From assembly GCF_050920415.1 (NCBI RefSeq), contig NZ_CP169309.1: 64,000 bases of DNA. One strand, 5' to 3'. Origin of the DNA: Escherichia coli. GTDB lineage: Bacteria; Pseudomonadota; Gammaproteobacteria; Enterobacterales; Enterobacteriaceae. Positions 13-7,193 of the stretch are shown here, one piece after another. Under the pieces are notes generated by a model. That model made no database searches, was not told where the DNA came from, and saw only the letters and a list, made by a program, of their open reading frames with translations. Each line of letters opens with the position of its first letter. Position 1 is the stretch's first letter. The translations under genes and the position numbers were made by a program.

Positions 13-915
13 ATGCGCTGGATTAAAACAGCCCGTGACCGTGATGAAATGGAAAGGCTAATGCAAGCGGCTTGCGATGCTTTCACGGAAGAAATACCCC
101 GAGCGGAGGCCGTGCCAGTGCCGGAAATTGATTTTCAAAAAAGTCTGGCCCTTTATCCGGTATTCGATTTGCATATAGGGGCGCTTGCTCATAAAGCTGA
201 GTGCGGCGAAAGCTACGACACCGGGATCGCTGAACGCGTGCTAAATGATTTCTTTGACTACGCGGTAGGCGCTGCGCCAATGTCTGAAAAGGCTGTTTTG
301 CTTCTCGGCGGTGATGTGCTTCACACTGACGGCCTGTTACCAGTGACGCCATCAAGTAATCACGTTTTAGATTGTGATTCACGCTACGCAAAACTGGTTT
401 ATGTGGCGATCCGGTCGGTCCGGCGTGCGGTCGGGAAGATGTTACTAAATCATAAGGATGTCGAGATCCAGGTATTATCCGGTAATCACGACCAATCAGG
501 TATGATCTGGCTACGTGCTGCGCTTGCGGCTTTTTACGAAGATGAGCCGCGTGTGACTGTTGACGTGTCACCTGCCATTGTCCACCACACACAGTACGGC
601 AAAACATTCCTTGCTTACCACCACGGGCACACTATCAAAAAGCCAGAAAATTTACTTTCTGCCTGCGTTTCTGACTGGCGGGAGGATTTCGGCAAGTCGT
701 CGGCGGTTTACGCTCATTGCGGGCACTGGCATCATCAACGGCTGATTGAATCATCGTTAGGCGTTGTCGAGTATCACGGCACATTAGCTGGCAAAGACGC
801 TTATTCAACGAATGGCGGCTGGCGGTCGCGGAGGCTGGCGGCGGTAATAATTTACAGTCCTGATCACGGGGAGATCGGGCGCTTTGTTTATTACCCTGAA
901 TATTCCATTTTGTAA
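13..915 (+). CDS. Calcineurin-like metallophosphoesterase-fold protein (phage-associated); may be 5'-truncated by the window edge
   Basis: Motifs DLHIG, GGDVLHTDG, GNHD, HHGH, GHWHH in the translation; reading frame is open back to position 1. Confidence 0.55.
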   Translation: MRWIKTARDRDEMERLMQAACDAFTEEIPRAEAVPVPEIDFQKSLALYPVFDLHIGALAHKAECGESYDTGIAERVLNDFFDYAVGAAPMSEKAVLLLGGDVLHTDGLLPVTPSSNHVLDCDSRYAKLVYVAIRSVRRAVGKMLLNHKDVEIQVLSGNHDQSGMIWLRAALAAFYEDEPRVTVDVSPAIVHHTQYGKTFLAYHHGHTIKKPENLLSACVSDWREDFGKSSAVYAHCGHWHHQRLIESSLGVVEYHGTLAGKDAYSTNGGWRSRRLAAVIIYSPDHGEIGRFVYYPEYSIL

Positions 916-933
916 ACCTGAGGAAATACCATA

Positions 934-2355
934 ATGGTGACTGAGCAAGTAAACTCATTACGCCAGGAACGGGAAGCTGCTGTGATAGGTGGACTCCTGT
1001 TAGGCGGGCTTACTCCTAACGCGCAAGATGTTCTTGCTACGCTCGATCCTGAAGTCTTCACCATTCCACTATATAAACGAGCGTTTGAGATCATCCGGGC
1101 GCAAGCCAGAAACAGAAACCTTATTGACGCGCTGATGGTCGGTGATGAAATCGGTAACGAAAATTTTGTCCCGCTAATGCAAACTGCGCGATCGTGTCCA
1201 TCTGCCGCCAACCTGAAGGGGTACGCCGCGCTATTGCAGGAGGAATATCAGCGGCGGCAAATGCTGGAACTAATGGACGATATACGCTACAACCTGGAAA
1301 CCGGGACACTTGAATCTGTCAGGGAGACGATGAAATATTTTGATTCCCGGTATTCAAAATTAAAGGTAACAAAAGATCAGATTATCCCGGTGCTGTTGCG
1401 CGATGCTGTCCAGGAATACACGGAAGTGCTAAGTAAACGCATGGAGTGTGGCGTGAACTCTGACAACATCAAAACAGGGATTGACCCACTCGACGAAATG
1501 TTAGGCGGCATTAACGCTACTGATCTGGTGCTTATAGCTGGACGCCCAGGGTCTGGTAAATCTGCGTTGGCGTTGGCAATTGCCCGCGCGGCGGCTGAAC
1601 GTCCATACCCTGGCAGCGAAGGTCAACGGGTCGGCGTTTTGCTGTTCACGCTTGAAATGTCGCTCGATCAGATGACTGAACGAGCTATCGCTGGCGCTGG
1701 GAATTTATCAACGGATTGCCTACGTAATCCGGTAAAACTGGATGACGAAGGATGGGCGCACGTTGCCCAGGGGATGAGCGCCCTTGCCGATCTCGATGTG
1801 TGGATTGTTGACGCATCGCAGTTAACGGTTGAGGAAATACGCGCCACCGTCGAACGGATGAAACAGGACCATCCTAATCTTGGAATGGTGATGATTGACT
1901 ACATCGGGTTAATGAAACTGGCTAAGGCCGAACGTCATGATCTCGCCGTAGGGCAATTGTCGTGGTCATTGAAAATGATGGCGAAAGAGTTGCGCGTGCC
2001 AGTGGCGGCGCTGGCGCAATTATCCCGCCGCGTTGAAGAACGACCGAACAAGCGCCCGAACAATTCTGATCTGCGTGATTCCGGTAATCTTGAACAAGAC
2101 GCAGACCGGATCATCATGGTCTACCGCGACGGCTACTACAACGAACAATCAGTTGCCCGCGAATACATGGAGATCATCGTTTCAAAAAACCGTCACGGGA
2201 AAACGGGGACTGTTTACCAGCGGTTTGACGATAACGGCAACATCATTCCATGCGACCAGGCTCGCGCGGCGTCCGCCTGCATCCAGTCAATGCAACAACG
2301 TCCGGCAGCAAGCCGATTCTCCCCACGAAATAACCAGAATAACTCATCCTTTTAA
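934..2355 (+). CDS. DnaB-like replicative DNA helicase (phage type)
   Basis: 473 aa; Walker A motif GRPGSGKSALALAIA and DnaB-like N- and C-terminal regions; GAGGA ribosome-binding site before the ATG. Confidence 0.8.
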   Translation: MVTEQVNSLRQEREAAVIGGLLLGGLTPNAQDVLATLDPEVFTIPLYKRAFEIIRAQARNRNLIDALMVGDEIGNENFVPLMQTARSCPSAANLKGYAALLQEEYQRRQMLELMDDIRYNLETGTLESVRETMKYFDSRYSKLKVTKDQIIPVLLRDAVQEYTEVLSKRMECGVNSDNIKTGIDPLDEMLGGINATDLVLIAGRPGSGKSALALAIARAAAERPYPGSEGQRVGVLLFTLEMSLDQMTERAIAGAGNLSTDCLRNPVKLDDEGWAHVAQGMSALADLDVWIVDASQLTVEEIRATVERMKQDHPNLGMVMIDYIGLMKLAKAERHDLAVGQLSWSLKMMAKELRVPVAALAQLSRRVEERPNKRPNNSDLRDSGNLEQDADRIIMVYRDGYYNEQSVAREYMEIIVSKNRHGKTGTVYQRFDDNGNIIPCDQARAASACIQSMQQRPAASRFSPRNNQNNSSF

Positions 2356-3403: not shown

Positions 3404-3831
3404 GGCAAATTAGATTTGAAGTAGTTAATGACGCCGTGAAAGAAAATGCTATCAGGCAGATAAGGGAAATACAGCCTGATAGCAAAAGCCCGCTGATAAT
3501 TACCATCCAGGAGAAAACCCGCTCACTAAGCCAAAATGCGTTGCTTTGGGCGCTGCTAACCGACATTAGCGATCAGGTTAATTGGTACGGCAAGAAGCTG
3601 TCTCCGGAAGACTGGAAAGCGGTATTCACTGCCGGACTTAAGAAATATGGCGTCGTCCCTAACCTGGATAAATCCGGCTTCGTTGTATTGGGAACGTCTA
3701 CAAGCCGGATGAGCAAATCGGAATTCAGTGAACTAATCGAATTAATTTACTCGTTCGGTGCTGAACATAATGTCCAATGGTCGGGTGATACGAAATTAAA
3801 TGAGGAATTCATAAAACGCTGGGGGCAATAA
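3400..3831 (+). CDS. NinB-like recombination protein (lambda Orf/NinB family)
   Basis: 143 aa; pattern IQEKTRSLSQNALLWALLTDISDQVNWYGKKLSPEDWKAVFTAGL resembles lambda NinB as recalled from memory. Confidence 0.7.
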   Translation: MRQIRFEVVNDAVKENAIRQIREIQPDSKSPLIITIQEKTRSLSQNALLWALLTDISDQVNWYGKKLSPEDWKAVFTAGLKKYGVVPNLDKSGFVVLGTSTSRMSKSEFSELIELIYSFGAEHNVQWSGDTKLNEEFIKRWGQ

Positions 3832-4007
3832 TGGCGCGTTATTATATGGCTAAACCTACCGGAATTTTGTATAAGGTTGATGGCGAATACGTTTTTTATT
3901 TTCACAACCAGGCGCGAGAGTGGCGATTGTGTCACGCGCACTTTCAGCACGAAATAGAAAACCACCCTGAATATTTTATTAAGGTTGACAATGTAACGGT
4001 GGCGTAA
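3831..4007 (+). CDS. Hypothetical small phage protein (58 aa)
   Basis: ATG overlaps the NinB-like stop by 1 nt (TAATG); translation MARYYMAKPTGILYKVDGEYVFYFHNQAREWRLCHAHFQHEIENHPEYFIKVDNVTVA; below the ORF-track length cut-off. Confidence 0.35.
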   Translation: MARYYMAKPTGILYKVDGEYVFYFHNQAREWRLCHAHFQHEIENHPEYFIKVDNVTVA

Positions 4008-4022
4008 CTGAGGATAGGCAAA

Positions 4023-4667
4023 ATGAATAAACTTAAAGCAATTGGCGTAATTCGCCATCGTGTAGACCCGGACTACCCTTCTTTTGAGGTTGCCACATAC
4101 CGCAACGAATACCAATATGGATCATCTTTCCTTGTGGGTGTTCGCGCTGATACTGGCGGCACTTATTCAGTTATGGCGGCTTCATGTGTTTTTGAAGAAT
4201 ATAAAAATATAGATGATGACGGCATGAATAAAGAAAGCGAAATTATTGATGAATTAATCGAAGATGAGCGGCATGATTGCGATGCGCCGAAAGTCACGGA
4301 ATGGAAACCAGGAGAAAAGCCTCCGTGCGGCGTGTGGCTTGATTGTTATTATCCTGATGGCTATCACATTGGGATTTTAATGTTTAAATTTATCGGTGAT
4401 AAATACGGGGTATACACAGAAAAAGGCAGTATACAGAAAGAAAATGCTATTGAATGGGGTTTTTATAATTATTATTTATACGTTGATCCGAAAGAAAAAG
4501 CACTGGCACAAATTGCGTTTGCGTTGGCTGCTAAGGTTATTGGTGAGGATGCGGCAGGAGAAATAAATTTCAATCGTGATAATGATTATTCGCGTGATTA
4601 TCGGAATATGGCAAAAGCCATTATTAATGGGGATATCCCGCTAACTAAATATAACGGGGATAAGTGA
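4023..4667 (+). CDS. Hypothetical protein, AT-rich cargo ORF (214 aa), function unknown
   Basis: GAGGA ribosome-binding site; markedly lower GC than flanking genes; acidic stretch followed by a Cys/His-containing segment (HDCDAPKVTEWKPGEKPPCGVWLDCYYPDGYH). Confidence 0.5.
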   Translation: MNKLKAIGVIRHRVDPDYPSFEVATYRNEYQYGSSFLVGVRADTGGTYSVMAASCVFEEYKNIDDDGMNKESEIIDELIEDERHDCDAPKVTEWKPGEKPPCGVWLDCYYPDGYHIGILMFKFIGDKYGVYTEKGSIQKENAIEWGFYNYYLYVDPKEKALAQIAFALAAKVIGEDAAGEINFNRDNDYSRDYRNMAKAIINGDIPLTKYNGDK

Positions 4668-4897
4668 TGGATAAAACCGCGACATTGTTATTGACTACGG
4701 CACGAATAAGGGAAATGCTCGGAGGAATAAGTAGGACAACATTCAGAGTATGGAAAATGAAATGGGAAGCGGCTGGAACACCATTTCCTGAACCGCTTCA
4801 CGAATTATCAACTACGTCGCGCCCTGTATATCGTTATCAAGATGTAATGCAGTTCTTTAAGTCAGTAGGCTTGCTTTCTGATACTGATAAAACGTAA
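4664..4897 (+). CDS. Putative excisionase / AlpA-family DNA-binding protein
   Basis: 77 aa; helix-turn-helix-like TTARIREMLGGISRTTFRVWK; lies next to the integrase; start overlaps the upstream stop (ATGA). Confidence 0.45.
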   Translation: MMDKTATLLLTTARIREMLGGISRTTFRVWKMKWEAAGTPFPEPLHELSTTSRPVYRYQDVMQFFKSVGLLSDTDKT

Positions 4898-6057
4898 TTA
4901 GCCCATAATTCCGCAGCGTCTTTCTGTTCTTCTACATAATCATATCTGTCATAAACTCCTAATACTCCGCCCAGGGTATGGCCCAACATTTTTTCGGCTA
5001 CCTGGGCGGTCACGCCTAATGCCGCTAAATGCGTGCGGCACGTCCGGCGCAAATCATGCGCAGTAAAACCCGCCTTAAATCCAATTTCATTACTAAGCCT
5101 TGTCGCTAGTCTTGTGCACACAGCTTTATCCATTGGTTTACCATCCAGCGACAATACCGCAGGGAAAACTATGTCGAAGTTGTGACAATTAAACATCATG
5201 CTTAATAGCTCGACGCTTAACGTTGACAGGCCGCGCGTAAACCGCTTTTTGTTTTTGGATAGTTCCGCAGGAATATTCCATACCCTGTTATTGAGATCAA
5301 AATGTTCACGCTTTGCTAGCCTCAATTCTACCGTCCTGCATCCTGTTAATAGCAGTAGTCTGAAGAATGTCATATTGGCCTTAGACATAAAATCGCCAGT
5401 CGTAAAACGCCAGAATTCCCCTACTTCCTCGCCAGATAAATATCTGTCGATCTTGCGCGGCGGTTTGCCAACGTCTTCCACTCGCAACAAGCGGATCTCG
5501 TTGTCTTTTACTATCCCTTTCCTTTGCGCCATAGCGACAATGGATTTCATGCGTCGTAACATCGCGCCAGCCTGTACCGGATGGCCCGCTTTCGTTATCT
5601 CTGAGAATATTGCCTCCCACGCCCTTGCGTTAATGTCATCCACAATAAAATCGCCATACCTCTTGATTATGTGCTTTTGTAAGTTTTGCTTGATCTCTTT
5701 GTATCCCTTAATTTCCCTGGTCGTCTGTTTATTAAGATAGTTGTTAACGATATCGCTAACGGTTGCTCTCGCCCTCGCCTCTTCAATGCGCTGCTTCTTA
5801 GCAAGTCCGGGATCTTTGCCGTCTGCTAATATCGCCTTGCACTCAATTACCGCTAGCCTGGCTTCCTTTAGCGTCATTATGCCATAGTTGCCTAGCTTCA
5901 TTCTTTTAGGCTTCCCGTCATACCTGTAGCGATACTGAAACGTAATTACGCCTTTCGGGCTTACCCTTACTGACAGACCGCCGCCATCCGGGATCTCGAC
6001 CGGACCATCATAACTTTTACCGTGGATGCTTCTTAACTTAGTGTCAGATAACGCCAT
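4837..6057 (-). CDS. Site-specific tyrosine integrase (P4 family)
   Basis: 406 aa; N-terminal arm-binding-type region (GLSVRVSPKGVITFQYRYRYDGK), C-terminal catalytic signature HDLRRT...LGH...YDRY. Confidence 0.85.
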   Translation of the reverse strand: MALSDTKLRSIHGKSYDGPVEIPDGGGLSVRVSPKGVITFQYRYRYDGKPKRMKLGNYGIMTLKEARLAVIECKAILADGKDPGLAKKQRIEEARARATVSDIVNNYLNKQTTREIKGYKEIKQNLQKHIIKRYGDFIVDDINARAWEAIFSEITKAGHPVQAGAMLRRMKSIVAMAQRKGIVKDNEIRLLRVEDVGKPPRKIDRYLSGEEVGEFWRFTTGDFMSKANMTFFRLLLLTGCRTVELRLAKREHFDLNNRVWNIPAELSKNKKRFTRGLSTLSVELLSMMFNCHNFDIVFPAVLSLDGKPMDKAVCTRLATRLSNEIGFKAGFTAHDLRRTCRTHLAALGVTAQVAEKMLGHTLGGVLGVYDRYDYVEEQKDAAELWANYVLSVSESKPTDLKNCITS

Positions 6058-6464
6058 AATCGCCCCTTATTTGGTGCACAACATGGTACACAAATCATGG
6101 TTTACGCAATATAACGCAAAAGCGCGCTTGTTTACAGCGAAAACCAGTAAATCTACTAAATTCATGGCGTTAGGGGTGATTTTGCTTGCGTATGTTTACG
6201 CTTGTGCGCGGTATGTAGCATTAGAAAGAGAAATGCTGCTGACCAACAGCGCACAACACGTGACTGAAACAGAGTGCTTCATAAGTTACCCTCAAACCTG
6301 CGTTAATAATCATGCGTAATTATTTGTTTCGCCTTAAAGAAATGCAAACAACTTCCGGCAAAAAAGTGATACGAGATCGATAACATAGCGTTGAAGAAAA
6401 GGATTTGATAATCCGCAAAATTTGCACAACACTGCCTGTAATACTTCCTGAACCAGAGACGATC

Positions 6465-7193
6465 ATGACCGTAACTCGCCCACGCGCCGAACGCGGCGCA
6501 TTTCCGCCCGGTACAGAACATTACGGACGTTCATTATTGGGCGCGCCTTTGATCTGGTTTCCGGCCCCAGCCGCCAGTCACGAAAGTGGTTTGATTCTGG
6601 CTGGCACCCACGGTGATGAAAACTCTTCGGTCGTGACCCTCTCCTGTGCTCTGCGGACATTGACACCTTCTTTGCGCCGCCATCATGTGGTGCTGTGTGT
6701 GAATCCTGACGGCTGCCAGTTAGGGTTACGGGCCAATGCTAATGGCGTGGATTTAAATAGAAACTTTCCGGCAGCAAACTGGAAGGAAGGTGAAACGGTT
6801 TATCGCTGGAACAGCGCCGCTGAAGAACGTGATGTCGTTTTACTGACAGGTGACAAACCTGGCTCCGAACCTGAAACTCAGGCGCTGTGCCAGCTTATAC
6901 ATCGCATTCAACCTGCCTGGGTGGTCTCATTCCACGATCCACTGGCCTGTATTGAAGACCCCAGACACAGCGAATTAGGTGAATGGCTGGCCCAGGCGTT
7001 TGAATTGCCACTGGTAACCAGCGTCGGTTATGAAACGCCTGGCTCTTTCGGCAGTTGGTGTGCAGATCTGAACTTGCATTGCATCACCGCAGAGTTTCCG
7101 CCCATCTCCTCCGACGAAGCCAGCGAAAAATATCTCTTTGCGATGGCAAACTTGCTGCGCTGGCATCCTAAAGATGCAATTCACCCGTTGTGA
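6465..7193 (+). CDS. mpaA: Murein peptide amidase A (gamma-D-Glu-Dap amidase)
   Basis: Translation MTVTRPRAERGAFPPGTEHYGRS...; 242 aa from the internal ATG, matching the known length. Confidence 0.85.
   Translation: MTVTRPRAERGAFPPGTEHYGRSLLGAPLIWFPAPAASHESGLILAGTHGDENSSVVTLSCALRTLTPSLRRHHVVLCVNPDGCQLGLRANANGVDLNRNFPAANWKEGETVYRWNSAAEERDVVLLTGDKPGSEPETQALCQLIHRIQPAWVVSFHDPLACIEDPRHSELGEWLAQAFELPLVTSVGYETPGSFGSWCADLNLHCITAEFPPISSDEASEKYLFAMANLLRWHPKDAIHPL

Follow-up and report, generated by a model that had tools for sequence, protein, structure and literature searches.

Tail-to-tail overlap of a probable excisionase gene and an inverted integrase gene in an mEpimmI prophage of Escherichia coli

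In a 64,000-nucleotide stretch of Escherichia coli DNA (contig NZ_CP169309.1; hereafter the window), an integrase gene and a small Xis-like open reading frame converge and share their 3' ends on opposite strands. This arrangement raises the question of whether convergent overlapping transcription couples the expression of the two recombination-directionality functions, as a first-pass annotation had suggested, or whether, as it had suggested alternatively, the small frame is not a true excisionase gene. The reading that we favor, with a probability of about 0.65, is that the locus is a site-specific recombination module in which int and xis are uncoupled as in phage Φ24B, and that their overlap results from tight packing and is tolerated.

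Anatomy of the overlap and of the prophage

The int gene (4837..6057, minus strand) starts with ATG and encodes a 406-aa tyrosine integrase of the mEpimmI 'type III' with an N-terminal Arm-DNA-bind_3 (P4-type) domain, and xis (4667..4897, plus strand) encodes a 76-aa winged-helix protein (pI 9.6), a probable excisionase/RDF. The map of open reading frames showed that the two genes overlap tail to tail by 61 bp on both strands (4837..4897), between the int stop codon (TGA, 4837-4839, with an in-frame TAA just behind it at 4834-4836) and the xis stop codon (TAA, 4895-4897). Since the overlap runs from one stop codon to the other, start-codon choice has no bearing on it. The 61-bp convergent overlap described in the first-pass annotation is thus confirmed, and it also stands against the concern that the true int stop or Xis boundary might abolish it. 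Within the overlap, residues 58-76 of Xis lie opposite residues 388-406 of Int, and the two frames are in register at their third codon positions. Given the stop frequencies of the prophage's own genes, an antisense frame of the same phase has a probability of ~0.44 of running through 19 or more codons without a stop; the length of the overlap is within chance, whereas the recurrence of the arrangement in relatives is beyond chance. A plus-strand frame of 180 aa that lies antisense to int (5198..5740) was rejected as spurious, since the open run in that phase is not conserved and reaches only 70 codons in mEp021 and KKa019.

By its domains, Int is classed as a P4-type tyrosine recombinase: both Arm-DNA-bind_3 (PF13356; 1.8e-19, 70.1 bits, cut-off 27) and Phage_integrase (PF00589; 7.7e-18, 65.3 bits, cut-off 27.1) scored above the curated Pfam thresholds, and the protein matched the PHROG 1 integrases at 2e-66. 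It is 98% identical to the Int of LSU61 and 34% identical to that of Φ24B (E 2e-71, N-terminus near-identical). Residues R241, K268, H334, R337, H360 and Y369 were invariant in an alignment of 12 sequences that included the functional Φ24B Int, the catalytic R-K-H-R-H-Y roles being assigned by motif position.

Synteny with mEp021, mEp010 and LSU61, a NinB protein that is 97-99% identical and a junction inside mppA mark the element as an E. coli prophage of the mEpimmI group (mEp021-like), inserted within mppA at its 5' end. Its integrase is assigned to type III, the class in which the LSU61 integrase has been placed (PMC11893012). Identity with the phage extends to 6231 and identity with the host begins at 6224. 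When the window was compared with attP (L015) and with an empty attB (L097), the prophage-host junction proved to be an exact attP/attB hybrid at a common core, GAAAGAGA (6224..6231), located at codons ~19-21 of mppA; catalysis of the attP x attB reaction by Int is predicted. Another candidate core, CAAACAACTTCC (6345-6356), which came from the comparison with LSU61, was discarded, as it marks only the divergence of two E. coli lineages upstream of mppA.

The Int-proximal attP arm (6058..6223, minus strand) contains three type-specific GTTTAC(G/A)(C/G) repeats (at 6100, 6130 and 6194) and a TGGTACACA element (6084-6092), and it must hold the 5' leader of int and any phage-borne int promoter. 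These elements may serve as promoter and binding sites. TGGTACRC was not significantly enriched as an arm motif in the window (6 found vs 3 expected), and a promoter scan gave only weak consensus matches for an int promoter. Because int points from the att site into the prophage, its transcription should be independent of the early operon; the start could lie within the 166 bp of the att arm or, in this lysogen, at the host mppA promoter, which is now situated upstream of int.

The small gene and its protein

An in-frame GTG at 4664 offers an alternative xis start that would give 77 aa. Because all homologues begin with MDK or MNK at an ATG, the start at ATG 4667 (76 aa) is almost certainly the real one. 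This ATG takes its A from the TGA stop codon (TGATG) of the upstream gene (4023..4667, plus strand), which encodes 214 aa and whose function is unassigned; therefore, xis would be the last gene of a co-directional early gene array. The same junction is a 1-nt overlap or a 3-nt gap in LSU61, mEp010, KKa019, MagusPhagus, mEp021 and STEC308, and the early array of LSU61 begins next to a divergent LexA-family repressor gene. A mosaic breakpoint between the window and LSU61 lies at about 4620-4680, i.e. at the start of xis.

Substitutions in xis follow a coding pattern, with third-position changes dominant in both the xis and the int frames, and its product is a small basic protein encoded beside the integrase. 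Moreover, Xis co-diverges with the integrase type, whereas neighboring genes do not. Identity of Xis is 88-100% within integrase types and 39-58% between them (86-98% and 46-50%, respectively, for Int); NinB, unlike Xis and Int, is 97-99% identical throughout, and the upstream gene shows a different mosaic.

Similarity searches with the 76-aa protein against Pfam, NCBIfam and PHROGs returned generic or sub-threshold HTH matches only. Phage_AlpA matched two of the 16 family members (best E 0.2) and HTH_17 matched four (best E 0.035), none of them at the gathering threshold, and the best Pfam matches of the family were to the generic HTH_23, HTH_28 and HTH_29. NCBIfam Xis_Gifsy_1 reached E 0.088 and 12.9 bits against a cut-off of 60, a PDB sequence search with the family profile gave no significant match (AlpA 7xya, E 0.56), and the only database name is 'helix-turn-helix domain-containing protein'. 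With 28 representative clusters in a set of 1.84 billion proteins, the family is a narrow one, and its invariant motif is MLGG-S...W..GTPFP...RY..V..F. On the other hand, the structure model of Xis adopts a winged helix-turn-helix fold of the AlpA/excisionase/MerR type, its Foldseek E-values being weak, and the family profile aligned with Φ24B Xis by hhalign with a probability of 82% (E 1e-5, 53 columns, 32% identity), a suggestive value that is under the usual 95% level. Similarity to AlpA/Xis-type excisionases was thus seen in the predicted fold and suggested by the profile alignment, but did not reach curated thresholds.

These generic matches could also mean that the main role of the 76-aa protein is in transcription control, e.g. 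as an AlpA-like factor that activates or represses int or other phage genes, with the true RDF elsewhere in the phage. The AlpA-family and MerR-like proteins do include pure regulators, and homologues exist without an adjoining int. However, this is hard to reconcile with the tight co-divergence of Xis and integrase type, with the placement of the gene behind recET or the ea genes in lambdoid relatives, where xis classically lies, and with the suggested profile-level homology to the proven Φ24B Xis; in addition, many RDFs regulate transcription too, and the two roles are not exclusive. We therefore regard a purely regulatory protein as doubtful. The 76-aa protein is very probably the excisionase of this prophage, and the suspicion that the frame is not a true excisionase gene is not supported by its coding pattern, its co-divergence with integrase type, its winged-helix model or its resemblance to Φ24B Xis.

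Conservation and evolution of the overlapped tails

The convergent xis/int overlap was present in all six related phage or prophage records examined, in one Rac-like prophage, and in Salmonella phage Oslo and Proteus phage Pm34; its carriers include mEp021, mEp010 and MagusPhagus. The viral collection supplied 102 relatives; among the 50 IMG/VR loci with enough downstream DNA to be counted, 44 carried the overlap, as did one more with a frameshifted int. The arrangement spans integrase types I, II and III and lambdoid phages of Salmonella and Proteus. In the Rac-like prophage, the small gene occupies the xis position after recE-recT, and CPZ-55-like and Klebsiella-type family members have no adjoining int. 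Overlap lengths in the family were 25, 37, 43, 46, 55 or 61 bp, all of which are 1 mod 3. Such strict conservation of overlap and phase in every lineage could reflect selection for the overlap.

Conservation bears first on whether the overlap is an artefact (sequencing error, pseudogene or spurious ORF), with one of the frames not expressed to its annotated stop. RefSeq leaves the small ORF unannotated in strain LSU61, the gene is mis-annotated in phage Oslo, and the frameshifted int of one IMG/VR locus could be read in the same way. However, overlaps identical or homologous to this one recur across dozens of independent assemblies, those of plaque-purified phages among them, third-position changes prevail among the substitutions of both frames, and the overlap is set by stop codons and not by debatable starts. 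An artefact is thus very improbable.

The pattern of change within the overlap points to a tolerated arrangement. Observed/expected substitutions were 3.0 for changes silent in both frames, 3.1 for those silent in Xis and changing Int, 1.25 for those changing Xis and silent in Int, and 0.25 for those changing both, in a test whose sequence pairs are non-independent and whose counts are small (24 against 13). By these classes, Int-only changes in the overlap were tolerated at the same rate as silent ones. The third-position rate was 0.097 in the overlap vs 0.14, which is about what dual coding alone predicts. Past the invariant A386, the Int tail varies from 7 to 20 residues among the aligned Ints, and the type Ia Int is without the last 8 residues. 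As to whether the Int C-terminus is conserved through the overlap, a point raised by the first-pass annotation, conservation holds for the first ~6-8 overlap residues but not beyond. In the AF2 models, pLDDT was <50 at Int 397-406 and Xis 73-76, the last ten residues of Int being predicted to be disordered, and the Int tail looks dispensable. Furthermore, Xis helix 57-67 faces this Int tail (397-406), and the Xis tail (73-76) faces the end of Int helix 375-394.

These features suggest how the overlap may have arisen and been kept. Tight packing would put the xis stop inside the last helix of Int, and the Int frame would continue through xis antisense until the codons of Xis Y57-Q58 (TAT CAA) yield its TGA; the codons of Xis R56-Y57 (CGT TAT; both residues family-invariant) would give a back-up TAA directly beyond. 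The structured part of each protein would lie mainly opposite the dispensable tail of its partner, and both frames are cheap to keep because their third codon positions coincide. Most likely, the overlap has no function of its own and is probably neutral.

A different interpretation is that the overlap is a selected cis-antisense device. Antiterminated early transcription would cross int and lower Int once Xis is made, through polymerase collision or RNase III cleavage of an int/xis duplex, in place of the lambda sib function; conversely, int transcripts entering xis would damp leaky Xis in lysogens. Several observations speak for it. First, the overlap is found in every int-adjacent member of the family with an invariant phase. 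Second, no terminator lies between xis and int or just past them on either strand, a scan of both strands over 4700-5000 having detected no terminator-like site at the overlap; therefore, a complementary stretch of 61 nt or more must be present in the two mRNAs. Third, mEpimmI phages have the N-like antiterminator Gp17 and a nutL site (PMC11893012), and therefore read-through across int would be likely. Finally, an RDF can reduce integrase expression in KplE1 and P4 (PMC2951348).

However, RNA structure at the overlap is neither conserved nor unusually stable (z 0.06 and 0.93), an Rfam search around it gave no match, and its third-position rate is close to the dual-coding expectation. Overlap length is variable, with 17 bp in Φ24B and 61 bp in the present prophage, and the overlap itself is not required for an antisense mechanism, because convergent genes yield antisense RNA whether or not their coding regions overlap. 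In addition, int is reported to be expressed constitutively in the Φ24B study, which mentions no antisense effects (PMC3064807). The region immediately past the 3' end of int also lacked the conserved hairpin (RNase III-type) or terminator that would be expected for sib-type retroregulation. A weak candidate hairpin (GAAGCGG...CCGCTTC followed by a U-rich run; 4748..4795, minus strand) is located 42-90 nt beyond the int stop, in the xis core. It was not flagged by the terminator scan, its counterparts in other lineages lie elsewhere, and some hairpins beyond the int stop are due simply to complementary Pro and Gly codons in the PPKGG motif; a role as an int 3'-end element is speculative. The coupling of the two functions by convergent transcription, as proposed in the first-pass annotation, likewise gained no support from the terminator, Rfam and folding results, from the shifting position of the hairpin or from the neutral behavior of Int-only changes. 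On balance, a selected antisense device at this locus seems unlikely, and slightly less likely still is its extension to a phase-locked antisense switch that replaces lambda sib across the whole inverted-integrase family, including Φ24B-like Stx phages.

A recombination module of the Φ24B type and its relation to known systems

With the overlap taken as a by-product of packing, the module would work through separate transcription of its two genes. The 76-aa Xis would be the cognate winged-helix RDF, and its gene, translationally coupled and placed at the end of the early array, would be under repressor control; the timing of xis transcription would therefore set directionality. Int alone would bring about integration, and Int together with Xis would bring about excision after derepression, as has been shown experimentally for the homologous inverted-int module of Φ24B (PMC3064807).

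The analysis names a probable excisionase for the mEpimmI phages; the paper describing these phages mentions none (PMC11893012). These coliphages are reported to be as common as lambdoid phages in human faecal isolates and not to be inducible by UV. Because xis overlaps int, annotation pipelines often miss or mis-call it. Our results also tie the mEpimmI phages to the Φ24B paradigm, in which multiple lysogeny by Shiga-toxin phages rests on an inverted integrase that is independent of the repressor; should this logic apply here too, integrase may be expressed constitutively in mEpimmI lysogens as well. The overlap itself probably matters little for function, and it offers a compact natural test case for antisense effects on recombination directionality.

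Among known systems, lambda resembles the present module in that xis is distal in an early operon controlled by repressor and N, and the Int:Xis ratio sets directionality. Unlike here, lambda xis and int are co-directional and co-transcribed, with xis overlapping the 5' end of int, whereas int is inverted in the prophage and the overlap is 3'-3'; lambda int is also modulated by the 3'-end sib/RNase III mechanism, for which no hairpin of this kind was found here. In KplE1/HK620 (IntS-TorI; Panis et al. 2010, PLoS Genet, PMC2951348), int reads away from att and the RDF is a small AlpA-type winged-helix protein, as here; the int promoter region falls within a recombination arm and int and RDF transcription are uncoupled, as is proposed for the present module. 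However, the KplE1 RDF gene is at the opposite end of the prophage, hence there is neither convergence nor overlap, and the negative autoregulation of int by Int and RDF that has been demonstrated there is only a conjecture for the present module. Compared with AlpA-family and other winged-helix excisionases (GIsul2 excisionase 8c3t, RdfS 8dgl, TorI and P4 Vis), the Xis family lies below Pfam thresholds and has its own motif.

The closest parallel is Φ24B (vB_EcoP_24B), whose P4-type Int is homologous to that of the prophage. In both, int runs opposite to its lambda counterpart and converges on a small xis, the distal gene of the early operon, which has the same orientation as that operon. Inversion frees Φ24B int from repressor control and uncouples it from xis (Fogg et al. 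2011, NAR, PMC3064807): 5'-RACE and qPCR showed that int has its own promoter and is expressed in lysogens independently of CI, whereas xis is under pL control and is required for excision (PMC3064807). The words 'overlap' and 'convergent' are absent from the main text of that paper (PMC3064807), and we found no convergent overlapping int/xis pair described as such in the literature; the Φ24B precedent comes only from its GenBank coordinates, which place int at 236..1405 (plus strand) and xis at 1389..1571 (minus strand) with a convergent overlap of 17 bp, compared with 61 bp in another phase here. Φ24B Xis, likewise hard to recognize in ordinary searches, has 60 aa, whereas the 76-aa protein has insertions (WEAAGT and a longer wing). 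Unlike Φ24B, the present element is a non-lambdoid mEpimmI siphovirus in mppA, and its module is known from sequence. The overlap described here represents, in condensed form, a gene arrangement for which the Shiga-toxin phage Φ24B already provides the example.

Convergent overlap and its conservation

The small plus-strand ORF xis (4664..4897) and the minus-strand int (4837..6057), which encodes a 406-aa P4-type tyrosine integrase, were found to have 61 bp in common at their 3' ends (4837-4897), as the first-pass annotation had proposed and as both the ORF list and the sequence agreed. Each end of the overlap is a stop codon, TGA at 4837-4839 for int (with a second in-frame TAA directly behind it) and TAA at 4895-4897 for xis; thus, reassignment of starts cannot abolish it. 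All homologues begin with MDK or MNK at the ATG 3 bases past GTG 4664, so translation of xis most likely starts at ATG 4667 and would yield 76 rather than 77 aa. With the start revised and the stops in place, it is hardly credible that the overlap is an artefact. The A of the xis ATG is also the last base of the TGA that ends the 214-aa ORF upstream (TGATG), a junction typical of translational coupling. The TGA closing the Int frame lies opposite the Xis Y57-Q58 codons (TAT CAA), and the back-up TAA comes from the R56-Y57 codons (CGT TAT), both R56 and Y57 being invariant within the family. An antisense reading frame would remain open over 19 or more codons with a probability of about 0.44, and therefore the overlap length requires no special explanation.

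Overlaps with int were also present in related phages and prophages: 61 bp in mEp021 (gene 02, 'putative helix-turn-helix protein') and STEC308, 43 bp in mEp010 and MagusPhagus, 37 bp in KKa019, 46 bp in a Rac-like prophage (gene after recE-recT-DUF4060) and Salmonella phage Oslo, and 25 bp in Proteus phage Pm34. Among 80 IMG/VR loci, 50 had sufficient downstream DNA, and 44 of these contained a convergent integrase-size ORF overlapping xis by 25, 37, 43, 55 or 61 bp; in a 45th, int was frameshifted and the overlap was still 61 bp. Every overlap length in these pairs equals 1 mod 3. Thus, the two frames keep a single phase relative to each other, one in which their third codon positions coincide. 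This conserved, phase-locked 3'-3' overlap, documented here with its evolutionary pattern, is new.

We also observed that xis was frequently overlooked or mis-called (L001 7263-7493; L004 5272-5502; L094 3443-3695; many IMG/VR loci, e.g. L014, L017 and L019). It was missing from the LSU61 RefSeq annotation and annotated with a truncated start in STEC308, and in phage Oslo a short incorrect ORF took its place; many IMG/VR prophage predictions ended exactly at its stop codon, cutting off the integrase.

Coding status and probable identity of the small protein

When 40 unique sequences were compared in pairs, substitution frequencies at codon positions 1, 2 and 3 were 0.015, 0.009 and 0.141 for xis outside the overlap, 0.037, 0.009 and 0.138 for int just outside it, and 0.014, 0.016 and 0.097 within it (xis numbering). 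Thus, the small ORF is a protein-coding gene under purifying selection. Identity of Xis was 88-100% within and 39-58% between the integrase types (I, II and III) of the mEp021-like (mEpimmI) coliphages, and that of Int was 86-98% and 46-50%, respectively. Unlike Xis and Int, NinB was 97-99% identical throughout; the gene just upstream of xis had a different mosaic pattern, and the mosaic breakpoint between the window and the LSU61 prophage coincided with the xis start. In lambdoid relatives, the gene occupies the xis position, last in the recET or ea-gene operon.

The 76-aa product (pI 9.6) had no match at threshold to any curated excisionase family; its family profile aligned to the experimentally proven Xis of the Stx phage Φ24B (hhalign probability 82%, E 1e-5), a suggestive similarity. 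Databases name it only as an HTH protein, which would suit a regulator that is not a recombination directionality factor (RDF), and the first-pass annotation had allowed that the ORF might not be a true excisionase. The coding pattern, the co-variation with Int type and the Φ24B Xis alignment oppose this, and we regard a regulator as clearly unlikely. Judged from these comparisons, the small protein is probably an excisionase. Weighing against this, the family is small (28 representative clusters among 1.84 billion proteins), and the word 'excisionase' is absent from the main text of the mEpimmI paper (PMC11893012). The probable excisionase of this group and of related Salmonella/Proteus phage modules is new.

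Some family members lacked an adjacent integrase (L007-L010, gene 4001-4237; L011; L033-L036), among them a 71-aa Klebsiella form. In a CPZ-55-like prophage, a 78-aa form that is very common in E. coli lies one gene from the end on the eutA side, which would place it across the att site from an integrase at the other end, as in TorI/IntS. The genes between ninB and xis, encoding 58 aa (3831-4007, +) and 214 aa (4023-4667, +), had no match in Pfam, PHROG or NCBIfam, and the latter was highly mosaic (51-83% identity) among otherwise near-identical phages, uncorrelated with integrase type.

Constraint and RNA-level features of the overlap

The first-pass annotation had asked whether the int C-terminus is conserved through the overlap. 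Conservation reached the invariant A386 and then faded within 6-8 residues, with tails beyond A386 of 7 (Pm34, L052) to 20 residues (window); type Ia Int lost its last 8 residues via a single Xis E-to-Q change making TGA. The last predicted helices span Int 375-394 and Xis 57-67, and Int 397-406 (AlphaFold) and Xis 73-76 had pLDDT<50, so the folded part of each protein would lie mostly opposite the other's tail. Observed/expected ratios against mutational expectation were 3.0 for overlap substitutions silent in both genes, 3.1 for those silent in Xis and changing Int, 1.25 for those changing Xis and silent in Int, and 0.25 for those changing both, which suggests, from small counts in non-independent pairs, a nearly neutral Int tail and a constrained Xis. 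A 180-aa plus-strand ORF antisense to int in the xis phase (5198-5740) most likely reflects the scarcity of stops in the shared-wobble frame, because open runs reached only 70 codons in mEp021 and KKa019; LSU61 had 261 stop-free codons in this phase.

The int and xis mRNAs must share a complementary stretch of at least 61 nt, and early transcription probably continues antisense through int in this group, which encodes an N-like antiterminator and has nutL (PMC11893012). A selected antisense switch would fit such transcription. At the overlap, we found no Rfam match and ordinary folding energies (z-scores 0.06 and 0.93), and a terminator scan gave no site within or just past it on either strand. 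A minus-strand hairpin with a U-rich tail within xis (4795-4748) could end int transcripts, and its counterparts differ in place among other lineages. Thus, a selected switch appears rather unlikely, and we favor the view that the overlap results from tight packing and is tolerated in a permissive shared-wobble phase (probability roughly 0.65).

Insertion site, expression and relation to Φ24B

Upstream of xis on the same strand are a replicative helicase gene, ninB (Pfam E 8e-47) and small genes that are barely separated or overlap. DNA searches assigned the region to mEpimmI, a temperate, non-lambdoid, Nus-dependent coliphage group (PMC11893012). The window Int and the integrase of the E. coli O157:H7 LSU61 prophage, which is type III and acts at mppA (PMC11893012), were 98% identical, and the chromosomal flank was E. 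coli (strain MFDS1022581, 100% identical). When the window was compared with both a free-phage attP (IMG/VR locus L015) and an empty site (L097), the junction mapped to an 8-bp core, GAAAGAGA (6224-6231), within mppA codons ~19-21; thus, int borders the prophage end, and its transcription runs away from the junction into the prophage.

The prophage cuts mppA after about 20 codons (window 6224-6400, - strand; L097 6824-7066; L015 4536-4600). The mppA promoter region and first codons (28-aa ORF from 6282, - strand) are directly upstream of int and co-oriented, so transcription from this host promoter could extend into int in the lysogen; between them lies a hairpin with a T-run (6250-6235, - strand). 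In the window lineage, as in MFDS1022581, the divergent genes mppA and mpaA are directly adjacent (window 6232-6465 vs L001 8966-13052 and L097). The pgrR-ycjY-ymjC block found between them in LSU61 is missing, and in LSU61 a sequence nearly identical to that upstream of mppA (AATACAAACAACTTCCGGCAAAAAAGTGATAC) also precedes mpaA.

In the 166-bp att arm between int and the junction (6058-6223), GTTTAC is repeated three times and a TGGTACACA element is present. Each integrase type had its own thrice-repeated int-proximal motif (window; L002 7665-7849; L003 5697-5845; L015 4568-4760): GTTTAC(G/A)(C/G) in type III, CTGAACGGA-like in type I and GACACGATAG-like in type II. Close to the start of int, types I and III have the TGGTACACA element in common; it is similar to sequence preceding Φ24B int, and it occurs twice more in the far attP arm. 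The motifs and this element are candidate arm-binding sites for Xis and Int that would overlap the region of the int promoter; within the window alone, they lacked statistical support. In the proposed mechanism, int would be expressed independently of xis, possibly from the att arm or alternatively from the mppA promoter in the lysogen, and xis would be produced only upon derepression of the early operon; Int alone would then integrate, and Int plus Xis would excise.

This inverted-integrase logic is not new, having been established for Φ24B, in which int is transcribed from its own promoter, is on in lysogens without CI repression, and excision needs the adjacent small pL-controlled ORF (Fogg et al., PMC3064807). 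The words 'overlap' and 'convergent' are absent from the main text of that paper. In the Φ24B GenBank record, int (236..1405, +) and xis (1389..1571, -) are likewise convergent, with a 17-bp overlap vs 61 bp in the window, and the two Int proteins were 34% identical (E 2e-71), the alignment stopping at window residue 390. Based on this homology and layout, the window module appears to be a diverged member of a functionally characterised arrangement.
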